Assembly: GCA_012719395.1 (NCBI GenBank)
Contig: JAAYAL010000016.1
Location: forward strand, 3,166 to 67,165
Length of the DNA: 64,000 bases
Direction: 5' to 3'
Origin: Gaiellales bacterium
GTDB taxonomy: Bacteria; Actinomycetota; Thermoleophilia; RBG-16-64-13
Every line of letters starts with the position of its first letter. Position 1 is the first letter of the stretch. The position numbers were made by a program, and so were the translations under genes. The notes beneath the pieces are model-generated. The model was not told the origin of the DNA and searched no databases. It saw nothing but the letters and a program-made list of their open reading frames with translations. Positions 2,421 to 11,522 of the stretch are shown here, in pieces.

Positions 2421-3632
2421 ATGGGAACAGGCATTTCTTGCATCACGTCAGGCGAATCGCATGGGCCGGCTGAGGTGTGCATCATTGAGGGCGTGCCTGC
2501 CGGATTGCGGCTGGCGGCGGAAGGTATTGACCTGCAGTTGCACCGTCGACAGACAGGCTACGGCCGGGGTGGGCGCATGGCAATCGAGTCCGACCACGTT
2601 GAGATCCTCTCCGGAGTGAGGGGTGGCAGCACCCTGGGCACCCCCGTGACGTTGCTGGTCAAGAATGCCGACCACCGCAACTGGATTCCAGCCATGCAGG
2701 CTGCTCCGTGGGCCACCGGCGAGGGGGGTAGCGGCCCATCGGTCACGGTCCCTCGTCCCGGGCATGCGGACTACGCCGGGCTCTGCAAACACGATCATCA
2801 CGACATAAGGAACGTACTGGAACGGGCAAGCGCGCGCGAGACCGTCTCCCGCGTGGCCGGAGGAGCCGTAGCCAGGGCTCTGCTCAGAGAACTGGGCGTG
2901 GAGGTGCGTGGCAGAGTCATCGCCGTGGGTGGGGTGGAGGATGCAACCGTGGTGGACCTCAACGATCCACAGTCAATCAACTGGGCTGCAGTGGAGGCAT
3001 CGGCGCTCCGGGTGGCGGATGCCGGGGCGGAACTGGCTATCATCGCCCAGATAGACGCCGCCCGCGAGGCAGGGGAGTCCCTGGGTGGCACGCTGGAGGT
3101 CTGGGCCTGGGGATTGGTGCCTGGACTGGGGGGGTATGCCACGCGCCAGATGCGCTTGGATGGTCGCCTGCTGGGATCCGTGGGCAGTGTCCCCGCCATC
3201 GTGGGGGTCGAGCTTGGGCTTGGGTTCAAGCGTGCGGGGTTGCGGGGGTCCGCGGCGCAGGATGCCTTCTACGTATCGGGAACGGAAAGGCCGGTGGTGC
3301 AGCGTCGCAGCAATCGGGCGGGCGGGGTGGAAGGTGGGATGACCAACGGCTCACCTCTGGTGCTGCGGGCCGCCATGAAGCCCATACCGACCATGACCTC
3401 GCCGCTTCCCTCGGTGGATCTTCAAGACATGACGGCTGCGCCTGCGCACAAGGAACGCAGCGATATCGTGGCGGTTCCGGCCGCTACGGTGGTAGCCGAA
3501 GCGGAGGTCTGCCTTGTGCTGGCTTCAGCGTACGTGGAGAAATTCGGCGGCGATTGCCTGGGAGACCTGCAGGAGGCGTTGAGGCTCTACTGCGCGCGAT
3601 TGGAAGCGAGAGGTCTGTGGCGCCGCTCGTAG
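2421..3632 (+). CDS. aroC: Chorismate synthase
   Basis: TSGESHG, RRQTGYGRGGRM, RPGHAD, ERASARET, SNRAGGVEGGMTNG, MKPIPT motifs. Confidence 0.96.
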   Translation: MGTGISCITSGESHGPAEVCIIEGVPAGLRLAAEGIDLQLHRRQTGYGRGGRMAIESDHVEILSGVRGGSTLGTPVTLLVKNADHRNWIPAMQAAPWATGEGGSGPSVTVPRPGHADYAGLCKHDHHDIRNVLERASARETVSRVAGGAVARALLRELGVEVRGRVIAVGGVEDATVVDLNDPQSINWAAVEASALRVADAGAELAIIAQIDAAREAGESLGGTLEVWAWGLVPGLGGYATRQMRLDGRLLGSVGSVPAIVGVELGLGFKRAGLRGSAAQDAFYVSGTERPVVQRRSNRAGGVEGGMTNGSPLVLRAAMKPIPTMTSPLPSVDLQDMTAAPAHKERSDIVAVPAATVVAEAEVCLVLASAYVEKFGGDCLGDLQEALRLYCARLEARGLWRRS

Positions 3633-5248
3633 TCCTGCTGGGCTTCATGGGCAGTGGCAAGACCGGGGCGGGCGCGGCATGCGCGGCTCTGCTTCATTAC
3701 GAGTTCGTCGATCTGGACGCGAGCGTGTCCAGCCGCGTTGGGAAGACCGTGGAGGCCCTCTTCTCAGAAGAGGGGGAGGATGCGTTCCGCGCGGCGGAAG
3801 TGGACGTCCTGCGCGATCTCCTGGAGGAATGGGAACGCTCTCCCCGGGGAATGGTGTTGGCTCTGGGCGGAGGCGCGGCCACGGTGACTGGGGTTCAGGA
3901 CGCCTTGCAGGGCAAGGGGCTGAAGATCTGGCTCAGCGTGGAGCCCGGGGTGGCATGGGGTCGAGTGAAGGGCTCCGCTCGCCCGCTGGCGCAGGATAGG
4001 GGGAGATTCGTGCGTCTGGCCCACGAGCGGCGGGACGCTTATCTTGCGCTCAGTGACGTGGTCTTGGATACGTCCGACCTGGAAATCTCGCAGGTAGCGT
4101 TCCGCTTGGCCCGCCTTACACAGGAAATGGGGGATGAAGAAGCCGCTCGCATGCAGAATCCGGTCTGGCGACTCAATGTGGAGGGCAAGCTTTCTCGCTC
4201 AGTCATCGAAGGCGGCCCTGGTACGCGCGAAGCATGCAGGCGGGTACGCGCGGGTCTCACAGAAGAAGGGCGGAGGGTATGGGTTGTCACCGATCAGAAT
4301 CTGAAGGTCCATTGGCCTCGTCTTGTGCATGACTTGTGCGGAGGCAGCGGGGCGGCAGACGCGCTGGTGCTGCCACCGGGTGAGGGGGCAAAGACCCCGA
4401 TCTGGGCTGAACGAGGGTGGCAGTGGCTGGCGGAAGCAGGAGCACGGCGGGATGACGCGATCCTGGCCTTCGGTGGAGGAGTGGTGGGTGATCTCGCCGG
4501 GTTCCTGGCGGCAACCTACCTGCGAGGGCTGGAGCTGTGGCAGTTGCCGACGAGCCTCTTGGCTCAAGTGGACAGCAGCGTGGGCGGCAAGACGGCGGTC
4601 AACCTACCGGAGGGGAAGAATCTGGTAGGCGCCTTCCACCAGCCTGCTCGCGTGTTCATCGATCCGGTGTTCTTGCTCACCCTGCCCCAACGGGAGCTCG
4701 CGAACGGCTTGGGCGAAGTGGTCAAGTACGCGGTGCTGGGCGGGGAGGCCGTGCTGGAGGGTTTGGAGGAGTCGGCGGACGCGGTGGCCTCGCTGCGCCC
4801 GGCGGCGGTGGACGAGAGCGTGCGAACCTGCGTGGCCTACAAGGCCGCGGTGGTGGGTCGCGACGAACGAGAAGCCGGAGAACGCGCTGTCCTCAATCTG
4901 GGCCACACCACCGCCCATGCACTCGAGCGGGTACTGGGCTACGGTGGGGTGGGGCATGGCGTGGCGGTGGCGCTGGGAGTACTGGTGGCCCTGCGTGTGA
5001 GTGAGGTGCTGCTGGACTGTCCCCAAGACCTGCGGGGCCGGACAAGGAAGCTCATGGAGAGGTGGGGTCTCCCCGTGCGTCTGAGACTGCCGGAAGACAC
5101 AGAGATTCTGGCGGCCATGAAGAGGGACAAGAAGGGTCGAGCGGGGGGCGTCGGCTTTGTGGGCGTGAAGGGAGCGGGAGAGCCGGTGACCGGCCTGCAG
5201 GTGCCGGAGTCGCTCCTGCGCCAAGCCCTGAGGGAGATCAGAGCATGA
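3617..5248 (+). CDS. aroKB: Bifunctional shikimate kinase / 3-dehydroquinate synthase (AroK-AroB fusion)
   Basis: N-terminal GFMGSGKT P-loop, LGGG, RPL (AroK); C-terminal GGGVVGDLAGF, PTSLLAQVDSSVGGKTAVN, LNLGHT (AroB); start re-picked at GTG 3617 overlapping aroC end. Confidence 0.93.
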   Translation: MAPLVVLLGFMGSGKTGAGAACAALLHYEFVDLDASVSSRVGKTVEALFSEEGEDAFRAAEVDVLRDLLEEWERSPRGMVLALGGGAATVTGVQDALQGKGLKIWLSVEPGVAWGRVKGSARPLAQDRGRFVRLAHERRDAYLALSDVVLDTSDLEISQVAFRLARLTQEMGDEEAARMQNPVWRLNVEGKLSRSVIEGGPGTREACRRVRAGLTEEGRRVWVVTDQNLKVHWPRLVHDLCGGSGAADALVLPPGEGAKTPIWAERGWQWLAEAGARRDDAILAFGGGVVGDLAGFLAATYLRGLELWQLPTSLLAQVDSSVGGKTAVNLPEGKNLVGAFHQPARVFIDPVFLLTLPQRELANGLGEVVKYAVLGGEAVLEGLEESADAVASLRPAAVDESVRTCVAYKAAVVGRDEREAGERAVLNLGHTTAHALERVLGYGGVGHGVAVALGVLVALRVSEVLLDCPQDLRGRTRKLMERWGLPVRLRLPEDTEILAAMKRDKKGRAGGVGFVGVKGAGEPVTGLQVPESLLRQALREIRA

Positions 5249-6791: not shown

Positions 6792-6937
6792 GGCGAGGCC
6801 GGGCTGTTTCGGGAAGCGTGTCGTGAACGGGTGCGAAGCCAATAGTGTAAAATTCGCCTGCTGTGAGCGAATGGCCTCGGTTGGGGATACGGCATTTTCC
6901 GGCATCGCCGGAGGCGCCTGAGGAGGAGAGTGTACTT

Positions 6938-7495
6938 GTGATTTCGGCCAACGACTTTCGCGCGGGAATGGTGGTGCGATTCGAGGGTGACCTGTACCAG
7001 GTCGTCGAGTACCAGCACGTCAAACCGGGCAAAGGCGGGGCGTTCGTTCGAACCAAGCTGCGCAATCTCAACACGGGCGGCGCCATGGAGCGCACTCTGC
7101 GCCCGGAGCAGAAATACGATCAGGTTCGGACCGAGAAACGGCCCATGGTGTATCTGTACGAGGATGGAGATGACCTGGTCTTCATGGACAAAGAGACCTA
7201 CGATCAGCTCTCCCTGTCGAAGGAATCCCTCGGTGGGAAGATCGAGTTCATGAAGGTTGACATGCCGGTGGATGTGGTCTACGTGGACGAAGCTCCCTTT
7301 GACGTGGAACTGCCCATCTTGGTCGAGTTGGAGATCGTGGAGACCGCCCCTGGTGTCAAAGGAGACACTGTGAGCGGTGGCAGCAAGACCGCCGTTCTGG
7401 AAACTGGGGCTACCATCCAGGTCCCCCTGTTCATCGAACAGGGGGAGACCATCAGGGTGGACACGCGAACGGGCGCGTATAACTCGCGCGTCTAG
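6938..7495 (+). CDS. efp: Elongation factor P
   Basis: HVKPGKGGAFVRTKLRN, PGVKGDT, VPLFIEQGE.IRVDTRTG.Y; GTG start after AGGAGGAG. Confidence 0.97.
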   Translation: MISANDFRAGMVVRFEGDLYQVVEYQHVKPGKGGAFVRTKLRNLNTGGAMERTLRPEQKYDQVRTEKRPMVYLYEDGDDLVFMDKETYDQLSLSKESLGGKIEFMKVDMPVDVVYVDEAPFDVELPILVELEIVETAPGVKGDTVSGGSKTAVLETGATIQVPLFIEQGETIRVDTRTGAYNSRV

Positions 7496-7540: not shown

Positions 7541-9418
7541 ATGAAGGCTCGACGTATAGCCGTAACCGACACCACACTGCGTGACGCTCATCAGTCGCTG
7601 TGGGCAACGCGGATGCGTGTGGGCCATATCGTACCGGTGCTGCCTGCCTTGGACCGTGTTGGCTTCCAGTCCCTGGAATGCTGGGGCGGGGCCACATTTG
7701 ACTCCTGCCTGCGGTTCCTGGATGAGAACCCATGGGAGACTCTGCGCACCATAAAGCACCACGTGCGCCGCACGCCGCTGCAGATGCTGCTGCGCGGCCA
7801 GAACCTGGTGGGGTATCGCCACTACGGGGACGAGATCGTCAGAGACTTCGTTCGCTTGGCGGCCGACTCCGGAATTGACATCTTCCGCGTTTTTGACGCA
7901 CTGAACGACACGCGCAACATCCGAGTGGCCGGCGAGGCCATCAAGGCTGCGGGCAAGCATTTCCAGGGCGCAGTGGTCTACACCATAAGCCCCGTGCACA
8001 CGTTGGACCACTATGTGGAAGTTGCTCACGAGCTGGCGGAGATGGGCGCCGACAGTATCTGCATCAAGGACATGGCGGCGCTGCTGTCGCCCTATTTCGC
8101 CGAGCGCCTGGTCAAGACCCTCAAGGATGAGATCAACCTCCCCCTGCAGCTGCACTGCCACTACATTGGCGGGCTGGCTCCCATGACCTACCTCAAGGCC
8201 ATCGAAGCCGGCGTGGACGTCGTGGACACGGCCACTGTGCCTCTGGCTTTCGGAACCAGTCAGCCGGCCACGGAAATGGTTGTCACCGCCCTCAAGGGTA
8301 CGCCCTACGACACGGAACTGGACCTGGAGGCGCTATTCGATATCGCCGAATACTTCGAGAAGGTGCGCGAAGAAGGCGGATATGAGCGTGGAGTGACCTC
8401 TCTGGACCATATGCGCGTCTACTCTCATCAGGTTCCCGGGGGCATGATCTCCAATCTCATCTCTCAGCTCAAGGAACAGAAGGCGGAAGAGCGGCTGCGC
8501 GAGGTGCTGGAGGAGATCCCCCGCGTGCGGGCGGAAGTGGGCTATCCACCGCTGGTGACGCCCTTGAGCCAGATCGTGGGCACCCAGGCCGTCATCAACG
8601 TGCTCACGGGGAAACGCTGGCAGCTGGTGCCGGACGAAATGAAATCCTACTTCCGCGGCAAGTACGGGCGCCCCCCGGCGCCCATCAACCCCGATCTGCT
8701 GACGCGGGTCCTGGGCGATGAGAAGCCCATTCAGGGTCGCCCCGCAGATCTGCTCACGGAGACCGTGGAGCAATTCCGGCTGGAGATCGGAGCGCTGGCT
8801 CGGAGCGAGGAAGACGTGCTGAGCTACGCGCTCTTCCCCAACGCCGCGCGTGGTTTCTTCGAGCGCCGGCACGAGGGGGCCGACCAGGATGTCTTCCTCA
8901 CCGCCCCCGCCGATGAGGAGCCGGTCTCAGCAGTCGCCCCCATTGCCACCGATCGTGTGCGCGAGCTGGTGGCGCTGGTGGAGAGCTCGGGAGTGGATGA
9001 GATCACGGTGGAGGATGGCGGCAGTCGGGTGACTATTCGCAAGAGCGCATCCCGCGCCTTCCCTGAGGCCCCGCTGCCGGTCGAACCGTTGCCGGCCGCC
9101 CAGTCGCAACCCGCCCCAGCGGTCGCTGCCCATTCGCCATTTGAAGCGAGAGGGAACCGCGCCGGCTGCAACGGCTACCACAAGGTGGTGGCGCCCATGG
9201 TGGGGACCTTCTACACAGCTCCTTCCCCGGGGATGCCACCGTACGTGGCCCTCGGTCAGCATGTGGCCGAGGGAGACGTGCTGTGCATCTTGGAGGCCAT
9301 GAAGCTCATGAACGAAGTGGGATCGGAAGTCAGCGGCGTGGTGCGCGACATTCTGGTGGCCAGCGGTGCGGCCGTGGAGTACGGTCAGCCGCTGTTTGCC
9401 ATAGAACTGGACGCCTAG
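7541..9418 (+). CDS. Pyruvate carboxylase/oxaloacetate decarboxylase-type carboxyltransferase fused to an AccB-type biotin carboxyl carrier protein
   Basis: DTTLRDAHQSL, ECWGGATFD, CIKDMA, LHCH, HQVPGGM, PPLVTPLSQIVG; C-terminal VAPMVGTFY and EAMKLMNE biotinylation motif. Confidence 0.9.
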   Translation: MKARRIAVTDTTLRDAHQSLWATRMRVGHIVPVLPALDRVGFQSLECWGGATFDSCLRFLDENPWETLRTIKHHVRRTPLQMLLRGQNLVGYRHYGDEIVRDFVRLAADSGIDIFRVFDALNDTRNIRVAGEAIKAAGKHFQGAVVYTISPVHTLDHYVEVAHELAEMGADSICIKDMAALLSPYFAERLVKTLKDEINLPLQLHCHYIGGLAPMTYLKAIEAGVDVVDTATVPLAFGTSQPATEMVVTALKGTPYDTELDLEALFDIAEYFEKVREEGGYERGVTSLDHMRVYSHQVPGGMISNLISQLKEQKAEERLREVLEEIPRVRAEVGYPPLVTPLSQIVGTQAVINVLTGKRWQLVPDEMKSYFRGKYGRPPAPINPDLLTRVLGDEKPIQGRPADLLTETVEQFRLEIGALARSEEDVLSYALFPNAARGFFERRHEGADQDVFLTAPADEEPVSAVAPIATDRVRELVALVESSGVDEITVEDGGSRVTIRKSASRAFPEAPLPVEPLPAAQSQPAPAVAAHSPFEARGNRAGCNGYHKVVAPMVGTFYTAPSPGMPPYVALGQHVAEGDVLCILEAMKLMNEVGSEVSGVVRDILVASGAAVEYGQPLFAIELDA

Positions 9419-9423
9419 ACCGG

Positions 9424-10794
9424 ATGTTCCGCCGCATTCTGATTGCCAACCGGGGCGAGATCGCCCTGCGCATCGTGCGGGCGTGCCATGAGTTGGGTAT
9501 AGAGGCCGTCGCCGTGTATTCCACGGCAGATGCCTCGTGCGCCCACGTGCTGGAGGCGGATCACGCGGTGTGCATCGGCCCTCCGCCACCGGTGAGCAGC
9601 TACCTGTCCATCGCCAATGTCATCTCCGCGGCCAGGATCAGCGGTTGCGAGGCTGTCCATCCCGGGTATGGCTTTCTGGCCGAGAACACCACCTTCGCCC
9701 GCAGCTGCGAGCAGCAGGACCTCGTGTTCATAGGCCCCACGCCGAAGAGCATGGATGATCTGGGCGACAAGTCCCTGGCCAAGCAACTCATGGCGGAGGC
9801 CGGCCTGCCCACCATCCCCGGCAGTCGCGGAACGGTGGGGGGGATCAGGGAAGCGGAAAGAGTGGCCGGCAAGCTCGGTTACCCCGTCATGCTGAAGGCG
9901 GTGGCGGGGGGAGGCGGCCGGGGCATGCGGCTGGTCGATGCGTCGGATCAGTTGGAGCGGGCATTCCTGGCCGCCGCGGCCGAAGCGCAGGGTGCCTTTG
10001 GCAACGGTGACCTCTACGTGGAGAAGGTTATCGTCAACCCGCACCACATCGAAGTGCAGGTTCTGGGCGACGGTCGGGGACGGGTGCTGACCATGGGAGA
10101 GCGGGATTGCTCCATCCAACGCCGGCATCAGAAGATAGTGGAGGAATCGCCCTCTCCGCTGCTGGATCCCAAGACGCGCCAGACCCTGCAGGAGCACGTC
10201 ACCGCTGCCTGCTCCCACGTGGCGTATGCCAGCGCCGGCACTCTTGAGTTCTTGGCGGATGACAAGAGGAATCTCTATTTCATGGAGATGAACACCAGGG
10301 TGCAGGTGGAGCACCCCGTCACCGAGATGGTGAGTGGCGTCGACATTATCCAAGAGCAGATCCGGATCGCCGCCGGCGGCCCACTGCCGTACACGGGCGC
10401 GGTTGCCCCGCGCGGGCATGCCATGGAGTTTCGCATCAATGCCGAGGACCCTTCCCACAACTTCCTGCCCCGCGCCGGCCGCATTGACCGGCTGCTTCTT
10501 CCCGGCGGTCCGGGCGTGCGCGTGGACACCCACCTGTACCAGGGTTACACCGTTCCTCCCAACTACGACTCGTTGTTGGCCAAGCTCGTGGTGTGGGCTC
10601 CCGATCGCCCGTCCTGCGTGGCCCGTGGCCGCAGAGCGCTCAAGGAGTTGAGTATCGAGGGCATACCCACCACGAGAGACCTGCATCTTGATATCCTGGA
10701 ACACACAGCCTTCAGAGAGGGCAGGTTCTCTACCGCCTTCTTGGAAGAGGCCAGAGACGAATTGCCCACGCTCGCGAGGAGTAGCAAGGGATGA
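9424..10794 (+). CDS. accC: Biotin carboxylase
   Basis: ILIANRGEIALR, HPGYGFLAEN, KAVAGGGGRGMR, ERDCSIQRRHQK, EMNTRVQVEHPVTE, YDSLLAKL; ATG at 9424. Confidence 0.96.
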   Translation: MFRRILIANRGEIALRIVRACHELGIEAVAVYSTADASCAHVLEADHAVCIGPPPPVSSYLSIANVISAARISGCEAVHPGYGFLAENTTFARSCEQQDLVFIGPTPKSMDDLGDKSLAKQLMAEAGLPTIPGSRGTVGGIREAERVAGKLGYPVMLKAVAGGGGRGMRLVDASDQLERAFLAAAAEAQGAFGNGDLYVEKVIVNPHHIEVQVLGDGRGRVLTMGERDCSIQRRHQKIVEESPSPLLDPKTRQTLQEHVTAACSHVAYASAGTLEFLADDKRNLYFMEMNTRVQVEHPVTEMVSGVDIIQEQIRIAAGGPLPYTGAVAPRGHAMEFRINAEDPSHNFLPRAGRIDRLLLPGGPGVRVDTHLYQGYTVPPNYDSLLAKLVVWAPDRPSCVARGRRALKELSIEGIPTTRDLHLDILEHTAFREGRFSTAFLEEARDELPTLARSSKG

Positions 10795-11114
10795 GCGGAG
10801 AAGAATTGGAATCCAGCTACCAGATCGCGGAGAGCGTCTTGGAGGCCATAGCCCGTCGGGCGCTGGAAGGGGAGAAGCGGGCTCGCCTGCATGCCGGAGG
10901 TATAGGCCGGGGACGCAACATCGACGTGTCGATGGAGGGCCTGTCCTACCACGCCATCGTGCACTTGGATGGAAGCCTGGGCGAGGACCTCATCCAGGTA
11001 GGTACGGAGATCCAGGGCAAGATCGCCCGCGCCCTCACCCGGATGACCGGCTGTGCCGTGGCGGCGGTTGACGTGGTGTTCGAGGGCGTGTACGCGCCCT
11101 CTGTCGGCGAGTAA
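10791..11114 (+). CDS. Asp23/Gls24 family protein
   Basis: IAESVLEAIA..., IQGKIARALTRMTG.AV.AVDVVFEGV; canonical position between accC and nusB. Confidence 0.8.
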   Translation: MSGEELESSYQIAESVLEAIARRALEGEKRARLHAGGIGRGRNIDVSMEGLSYHAIVHLDGSLGEDLIQVGTEIQGKIARALTRMTGCAVAAVDVVFEGVYAPSVGE

Positions 11115-11117
11115 CCC

Positions 11118-11522
11118 GTGGCCATAGGTAGGCGCCGAGCCCGGAAGGAAGCAATCTTCCTTCTCTATCAGTGTGACCTCATGGGGTTGACGGCACCCCA
11201 GGTGCTCGAGCGTGCTGAGCTGGCCGGAAACCTGATAGATGCCTACACGCGTCTCTTGGTGCTGGAGGTCTTCCGGCGCCGAGCGGCTCTGGACGAGCTC
11301 ATCGGGCGGCACCTCCAGGGCTGGTCGGTTGAGCGCCTGGCCCCGTTGGAACGCAACATCATGCGCGTTGCCTTGGTGGAGATCGGGGAGACGGCGGACG
11401 TTCCGGTATCAGTGGCCTTGGACGAAGCGGTGGGTTTGGCGAAAAGGTACTGTTCTGACGAAGCCGCCGGGCTGGTGAACGGGGTCTTGGGCGGCATCAT
11501 GTCCGATATCGAGGCGGCATGA
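11118..11522 (+). CDS. nusB: Transcription antitermination factor NusB
   Basis: RRRARKEAIFLLYQ, GWSVERLAPLERNIMR, VALDEAV.LAK.Y, VNGVLG. Confidence 0.95.
   Translation: MAIGRRRARKEAIFLLYQCDLMGLTAPQVLERAELAGNLIDAYTRLLVLEVFRRRAALDELIGRHLQGWSVERLAPLERNIMRVALVEIGETADVPVSVALDEAVGLAKRYCSDEAAGLVNGVLGGIMSDIEAA

Follow-up and report, generated by a model that had tools for sequence, protein, structure and literature searches.

We analysed a 64,000-nucleotide stretch of a Gaiellales bacterium genome (contig JAAYAL010000016.1, positions 3,166 to 67,165 of the forward strand; the whole stretch is hereafter called the window), and focused on a gene located between efp and accC at window positions 7541..9418 on the + strand. 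In a single open frame of 625 aa (P0001), this gene encodes a hybrid subunit in which an active-looking carboxyltransferase (CT) of the PycB/OadA type is covalently joined to a complete housekeeping AccB, which in acetyl-CoA carboxylase (ACC) serves as biotin carboxyl carrier protein (BCCP). In the textbook view, acetyl-CoA carboxylase and pyruvate carboxylase each have a biotin carrier of their own; in this bacterium, as in dozens of species (cultured Desulfosporosinus and Syntrophomonas among them), the housekeeping AccB is part of a pyruvate-type carboxyltransferase. The fusion is built from known modules and is widespread, yet it is undescribed in the literature searched, as a full-text search found no paper describing a PycB-AccB arrangement. 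On the genomic evidence it is slightly more likely than not that the fusion acts as the beta-type subunit of a pyruvate carboxylase built around AccB and AccC, in which one carrier and one biotin carboxylase would feed both the pyruvate CT and AccA/AccD.

A carboxyltransferase joined to a complete AccB

Residues 1-451 of the fusion (7541..8893, +) form the CT, which consists of a TIM barrel (Pfam HMGL-like, PF00682) and the PYC_OADA helical domain (PF02436; 180.8 bits, residues 293-451). A flexible linker of about residues 448-469 (8882..8947, +), without consensus in the alignment, leads from the CT to the AccB N-terminal module (residues 470-500, DRVRELVALVESSGVDEITVEDGGSRVTIRK; 8948..9040, +), which comprises a helix and a beta-hairpin and matches positions 5-35 of the TIGR00531 profile. 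The module is followed by a Pro/Ala-rich flexible linker that is evident in the sequence (residues 501-546; 9041..9178, +) and by an AccB-type biotinyl domain (residues 547-623; 9179..9409, +) carrying the thumb TAPSPGMPPY and the motif EAMKLMNE. Pfam Biotin_lipoyl scored 75.2 bits at residues 548-621, and the biotinyl lysine is K588 (codon 9302-9304). The best NCBIfam match of the whole protein was NF006761, 'pyruvate carboxylase subunit B', at 807.8 bits against a cut-off of 402.

An AlphaFold2 model of the fusion was built on 54 homologues. The CT was modelled confidently at residues 1-447, with predicted local distance difference test (pLDDT) scores of mostly 80-98, and the biotinyl domain at residues 547-623 scored about 90. 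Within the AccB N-terminal module, the model placed a helix at residues 470-482 and two strands at residues 487-492 and 495-500, which form the hairpin. The pLDDT was below 50 at residues 448-474, and the Pro/Ala arm was disordered at about residues 501-543 (pLDDT ~30). No PT- or BT-like domain was found in the model.

The public gene call for the fusion (P0002, 601 aa) begins 24 codons past the ATG at 7541 and would delete the RDAHQS motif of the CT. The alignment of the homologues begins at residue 1, which identifies the ATG at 7541 as the correct start; a ribosome-binding-site-like AGAGGA lies 8 nt 5' of this ATG. An assembly or frameshift artefact was rejected, as the single open frame of the fusion recurs in ~40 species-level genomes.

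The first-pass annotation of this DNA had described a PycB/OadA-type CT fused to a complete AccB with its BCCP N-terminus, Pro/Ala linker and biotinyl domain, and Pfam, TIGR00531 and structure alignments all bore this out. The AccB equivalog TIGR00531 scored 137 bits (cut-off 115.2; 140.7 bits in the genome-wide profile search), and residues 472-622 matched positions 5-155 of the 156 in the profile. Since this is nearly the whole profile, the tail is a full AccB, more than a biotinyl domain. E. coli AccB (4HR7_B) aligned from its chain residue 25 over residues 472-622 of the fusion at 94.8 bits, its thumb region aligning to TAPSPGMPPY, and two structures of the E. coli BCCP domain, 1BDO and 1A6X, matched the biotinyl domain at 72 bits. 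The BCCP of the beta subunit of a two-subunit pyruvate carboxylase (5KS8_C) gave a weak match to the tail, 17.4 bits. Residues E585, M587, K588 and N591 were invariant across the fusion alignment, and E481, E487 and E491 of the N-terminal module were invariant or nearly so. In E. coli AccB, the N-terminal part binds biotin carboxylase and oligomerises.

In a tree of 94 biotin carriers, the fused C-termini fell among standalone AccBs, apart from the 1.3S-type carriers and from a second carrier of the source genome on contig C50 (Shimodaira-Hasegawa-like approximate likelihood ratio test, SH-aLRT, 91). The AccB parts of the Bacillota fusions grouped with standalone AccBs of Bacillota (support 98). 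By each of these sequence-level measures, the C-terminal part of the fusion is an AccB.

Intact and degenerate carboxyltransferases among relatives

The best solved match of the CT was the pyruvate carboxylase beta subunit of Methylobacillus flagellatus (5KS8_C), at 508 bits over 444 residues (residues 5-448 of the fusion); V. cholerae OadA (2NX9) scored 491 bits and the transcarboxylase 5S subunit (1RQB) 448 bits. Residues D15, K176, H205 and H207 of the fusion aligned to the identical metal ligands D17, K178, H207 and H209 of 2NX9, and the CT motifs RDAHQS, LLRGQN, IKDMA, HCH and PGGMISNL are intact.

A motif table divided the fusions into two classes, class I with intact motifs and class II with all four metal ligands lost. 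Class I contains the source-genome fusion, its nearest relatives and the Bacillota forms. The class II forms of Gaiellales (L036-L105) read RLLGQEP / LLHDP / YCQG at the motif positions, and those in the source's own family, L018 (genome G012) and L020 (genome G014), read RSLIYLD / CLK-TAS / VDLDNAGG. Class II genomes retain the AccB part, accC and accA in the same slot, and their persistence where the CT ligands are lost shows that selection has kept the AccB part as the ACC carrier. In class I, for relatives from the same family and class, identity was 73-88% for the CT versus 49-63% for the AccB part, and the better conservation of the CT fits a working enzyme.

All fused CTs formed one clade (support 100), composed of a Bacillota branch and an Actinomycetota branch and separate from the same-family 5S subunits of 12S-5S-1.3S operons. 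The non-fused same-family CTs were rejected as a split fusion, since the 12S-5S-1.3S operons that encode them are not near efp and their sequences branch as a clade of their own. Both halves of the fusion roughly track organismal lines, and the fusion is therefore old or has moved as a unit. The CT tree joined all dead-CT forms (support 99) through two very long branches, whereas the AccB tree put the same-family dead forms with the clade of the source fusion (support 95). The differing substitutions in G012 and G014 versus Gaiellales suggest independent inactivation of the CT, though the CT tree joins both on long branches.

Of 31 genomes from the same family or class, about 21 had an AccB match that lay within a frame of 600-760 aa; relatives with the fusion were usually without a further AccB-type match, and accA was present in 30 of the 31. 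Species-representative genomes were scanned with residues 416-625 of the fusion as the query. The fused form was found at the efp...accC...nusB locus in many metagenome-assembled genomes (MAGs) of Actinomycetota, namely Gaiellales, Thermoleophilia and one labelled Coriobacteriia, and in the Bacillota Desulfosporosinus fructosivorans, two Syntrophomonas and Peptococcaceae BRH_c4a. In D. fructosivorans, one of the Syntrophomonas and Peptococcaceae BRH_c4a, the three Bacillota checked, the fusion was the only full-length AccB, and accA was present in D. fructosivorans and the checked Syntrophomonas. By their public names, the close homologues come from uncultured Thermoleophilia (Actinomycetota). 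They are annotated as 'AccB' (NCBI) or 'oxaloacetate decarboxylase alpha' (JGI), and each of these names overlooks half of the fusion.

Two further observations concern the genomes of this set. In both the AccB and CT trees, L105 (labelled Verrucomicrobiota) grouped with Gaiellaceae and L031 (labelled Eubacteriales) with L032; since both group with Actinomycetota sequences, their MAG labels or binning are doubtful. A third arrangement within the source's family occurs in genomes G004 (C6:3015619-3017824) and G010 (C13:36516-38793), where a PycB-like protein of 613-638 aa bears a biotinyl domain that is not AccB-type and its gene adjoins a biotin carboxylase 48% identical to the source AccC. 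Both genomes also hold a transcarboxylase-type operon and accA, with no AccB-type carrier.

Proposed carrier sharing and alternative readings

The biotin enzymes were inventoried in the source genome (G000; 98.2% complete, 92 contigs). Four sites gave biotinyl/lipoyl-domain matches, namely the fusion, an E2 acyltransferase, a weakly matching site within the window and the 173-aa carrier on contig C50. The AccB cut-off was reached by the fusion alone, the C50 carrier scoring 36.7 bits on TIGR00531 through its biotinyl part only, and the profile search found no separate AccB-type gene in this 98.2%-complete genome. A PYC_OADA domain was found once in G000, in the fusion, and therefore no single-chain pyruvate carboxylase is present. 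OadB (PF03977) and OadG (PF04277) gave no match in G000. On contig C65, fabF is followed by bona fide accD (328.6 bits against a cut-off of 317.45) and accA (329.8 bits against 319.3). The first-pass annotation had singled out a separate accB, pycA and oadB/oadG as genes that would bear on its reading and had named AccA/AccD as the partners of the shared carrier. No separate accB, single-chain pyruvate carboxylase, oadB or oadG turned up in G000, both partners did, and the C-terminal 150 aa of the fusion grouped with standalone AccBs and not with PycB or 1.3S carriers, so that neither of the two findings that would have counted against its reading, a standalone accB and a PycB-like tail, was encountered.

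Bacterial and archaeal phosphoenolpyruvate carboxylase (PEPC) and GTP- and ATP-dependent phosphoenolpyruvate carboxykinase (PEPCK) were not found in G000, and citrate synthase was present. With PEPC and PEPCK lacking, the fused CT is the only C3-to-oxaloacetate carboxylating route recognised, in a search that did not extend to malic enzyme. Contig C50 (L003, L009, L021) ends just after an operon in which an acyl-CoA ligase and a 12S-type CT are encoded together with a second biotin carboxylase and the 173-aa non-AccB carrier; this operon specifies an acyl-CoA carboxylase of three subunits.

In each of five genomes of the same class, G020, G023, G025, G028 and G030 (all at least 98% complete, G030 being one contig), an intact class I fusion was the only strong biotinyl-domain match, exactly one biotin carboxylase was found and accA was present. 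The source fusion is orthologous to these five fusions, with CT identities of 73-77%. Any malonyl-CoA that AccAD may make in these organisms must come by way of the fused carrier, and the CT attached to it has an intact catalytic centre.

From the catalytic positions and the genome inventory, we infer both enzyme activities and the sharing of the carrier. In the proposed mechanism, the AccB N-terminal module would recruit the co-translated AccC, which would carboxylate the biotin on K588 with ATP and bicarbonate. The long Pro/Ala arm would then take carboxybiotin to the fused CT, where pyruvate would be converted to oxaloacetate for anaplerosis. Alternatively, the same arm would serve AccA/AccD, where acetyl-CoA would be converted to malonyl-CoA for type II fatty-acid synthesis. 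The proposal of the first-pass annotation that one carrier and one AccC could serve both carboxylases was supported, with one qualification: each genomic check that it suggested favoured it, as do the five sister genomes, but G000 itself encodes a second biotin carboxylase and a second carrier.

This and three other points weigh against carrier sharing in a pyruvate carboxylase. The second biotin carboxylase, non-AccB carrier and 12S-type CT on C50 could make malonyl-CoA alone, or the C50 set could lend its carrier, and because of this extra set the sharing of the fused carrier in G000 is likely, not forced. Malic enzyme and amino-acid routes may be other sources of oxaloacetate. Pyruvate is the predicted substrate of the CT only through the 508-bit match to the CT of a characterised pyruvate carboxylase. 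Finally, the fusion and AccC are without the BT-like parts by which the subunits of the known two-subunit pyruvate carboxylases of bacteria are joined (PMC5059739), so that holoenzyme assembly is only putative.

ATP-free oxaloacetate:acetyl-CoA transcarboxylation by the fusion and AccAD is possible on the parts encoded. We consider it unlikely that this is the main role, with CO2 from oxaloacetate passing through the AccB biotin to acetyl-CoA via AccA/AccD without ATP and AccC confined to a back-up role or to net carboxylation. All parts for the reaction are present in G000, and Entamoeba has been reported to make malonyl-CoA through an oxaloacetate:acetyl-CoA transcarboxylase (PMC8136499). 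A supply of carboxybiotin without biotin carboxylase also apparently exists in three same-family genomes (G006, G009 and G013; 96% complete each), which hold accA and a 12S-5S-1.3S operon (loci L109, L113 and L114) and in which no match to the source AccC at 1e-50 and no Biotin_carb_C domain were found; these three may make malonyl-CoA without an ATP-dependent carboxylase. However, translational coupling of accC to the fusion is seen at this locus and at almost every one of the ~40 fusion loci, and with PEPC and PEPCK not found in G000, the oxaloacetate would have to come from the fusion enzyme. The fusion could also be an ACC carrier only, its CT being non-catalytic in vivo and serving as a scaffold or dimerisation module. 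The many relatives that keep a dead CT on AccB indicate that a CT can be retained for non-catalytic reasons, but the source fusion has kept all four metal-ligand positions together with RGQN and PGGMISNL, CT identities among relatives are 73-88% with short branches, and the CT is the sole candidate anaplerotic carboxylase recognised in G000, all of which makes a purely structural CT decidedly unlikely.

The second biotin carboxylase and the 173-aa BCCP of G000 would suit a division of labour in which the fusion is a pyruvate carboxylase beta subunit only, its AccB-like tail replacing the PycB carrier, and AccA/AccD use the C50 carrier and biotin carboxylase. This is more doubtful still: the C50 carrier lies in a 12S acyl-CoA carboxyltransferase operon and reaches 36.7 bits on TIGR00531 with its biotinyl part alone, sister genomes without a second strong biotinyl-domain match still keep accA, and the fused tail shows all the AccB hallmarks, the thumb and the N-terminal module among them, and occupies the accB slot. 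A different 2-oxo-acid specificity, such as that of the large subunit of 2-oxoglutarate carboxylase (CfiB-like), is suggested by the name '2-oxoglutarate carboxylase large subunit' of a 67%-identical homologue (P0074); this name is automatic, the CT of a characterised pyruvate carboxylase comes closest among solved structures (508 bits), and we regard such a specificity as very improbable. The alpha subunit (OadA) of a Na+-pumping oxaloacetate decarboxylase is hardly credible. Several homologues are so named by JGI, and TIGR01108 (oadA) scored 698.6 bits, which is below its equivalog cut-off of 756.5. On this score and the failure to find OadB and OadG in G000, the Na+ pump was rejected; besides, decarboxylases work without a biotin carboxylase, whereas the fusion gene is coupled to one.

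The preferred reading remains that of a pyruvate carboxylase beta-type subunit sharing its carrier with ACC. A wider version of it, which we put forward tentatively and consider rather unlikely, is a hitherto undescribed three-site biotin machine in which one AccB arm would visit AccC, its own CT and AccA/AccD. The carboxybiotin pool would be split between anaplerosis and lipids, and malonyl-CoA could be formed from oxaloacetate without ATP. Such a machine might be ancestral and energy-saving in Thermoleophilia and anaerobic Clostridia, and might be the source from which the relatives without biotin carboxylase and the dead-CT AccBs of Gaiellales arose. If one carrier does serve two or three active sites, this raises the questions of how carboxybiotin flux is split between the tricarboxylic acid cycle and lipid synthesis, how a pyruvate carboxylase assembles without a PT or BT domain, and whether slow-growing or energy-limited bacteria make malonyl-CoA by ATP-free transcarboxylation.

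The accB slot and known biotin-dependent systems

The gene order at the locus is pepP(M24)-efp-fusion-accC-Asp23-like-nusB-dxs-tlyA. The efp gene (6863..7495, +; Pfam EFP_N, EFP and Elong-fact-P_C) encodes elongation factor P and marks the conserved accB slot, and it precedes accB or the fusion at many loci. The accC gene (9424..10794, +; P0272) encodes a biotin carboxylase of 456 aa (TIGR00514, 627.7 bits, cut-off 626.5), and its ATG lies 5 nt past the fusion stop. It is followed by a gene for an Asp23-like small protein (10791..11114, +), the start of which overlaps the accC stop (ATGA) and the Pfam Asp23 match of which is weak (26.2 bits, below cut-off), and by nusB (11118..11522, +; Pfam NusB, 98.3 bits) at the downstream end of the conserved block. 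Planococcus and Staphylococcus show the order pepP-efp-accB-accC-nusB with a standalone accB, and the fusion therefore occupies the accB slot. The first-pass annotation had placed the gene in the accB position of an efp-accB-accC-asp23-nusB order, and the neighbours and the standalone accB of these Bacilli confirmed this.

Two observations on other genes were made in the course of this work. Within the window, downstream of chorismate synthase, a single open reading frame (3554-5248, +) specifies both shikimate kinase and 3-dehydroquinate synthase as an AroK-AroB fusion. Elsewhere in G000, contigs C45 and C77 carry two full-length carbamoyl-phosphate synthase large-subunit genes, with frames of ~1125 and ~1142 aa.

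Compared with known systems, the C-terminal 154 aa of the fusion resemble the E. coli-type AccB (TIGR00531; 4HR7_B, 1BDO) in the N-terminal module, the Pro/Ala linker, the thumb and EAMK, and the gene shares the efp-accB-accC-nusB slot with the AccB of heteromeric ACC. Standalone AccBs differ in being without the N-terminal 450-aa active-looking pyruvate-type carboxyltransferase of the fusion. Actinobacterial acyl-CoA carboxylases have shared alpha subunits that combine biotin carboxylase and BCCP, such as mycobacterial AccA3, which serves several AccD. The likeness to AccA3-type enzymes lies in one biotin carboxylase and carrier for several carboxyltransferases. In those enzymes, however, carrier and biotin carboxylase are fused with each other and the partner CTs are all of the crotonase (CoA) type, whereas in the fusion the carrier is joined to a TIM-barrel pyruvate CT and AccA/AccD would be the second partner. 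Many fusions and fissions between BCCP and pyruvate-type CTs were mentioned by Lombard and Moreira (2011; PMC3199775), who also mention the hypothesis that in Archaeoglobus a single biotin carboxylase may work with both types of CT.

The two-subunit pyruvate carboxylase of M. flagellatus (MfPC; PDB 5KS8; PMC5059739) resembles the present system in having a CT followed by a carrier and an adjacent separate gene for biotin carboxylase. In the MfPC type, a BT-like domain is made up of a four-stranded beta-sheet with an HGE motif after the beta-subunit CT and an Ala-rich C-terminal alpha helix of the ~471-aa alpha subunit (PMC5059739). The region of the fusion after residue 448 could not be aligned to 5KS8_C and holds a disordered linker and the AccB N-terminal module instead, and the source AccC (456 aa, ending in ...ARDELPTLARSSKG) is without the Ala-rich helix of MfPC alpha. 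The carriers also differ, that of the fusion being AccB-type (94.8 bits with E. coli AccB versus 17.4 bits with the MfPC BCCP). As neither the fusion nor AccC shows the BT-like domain, membership in the MfPC-type two-subunit pyruvate carboxylases was rejected. The 12S-5S-1.3S methylmalonyl-CoA:pyruvate transcarboxylase and the Entamoeba enzyme (PMC8136499) resemble the proposed system in combining a pyruvate-type and a CoA-type CT on one carrier; the 5S subunit (1RQB) matches the fused CT, and same-family relatives have 12S-5S-1.3S operons. The fusion differs from the 12S-5S-1.3S system in being encoded together with accC at a locus with no 12S gene, and in carrying a carrier of the AccB type rather than the 1.3S type.

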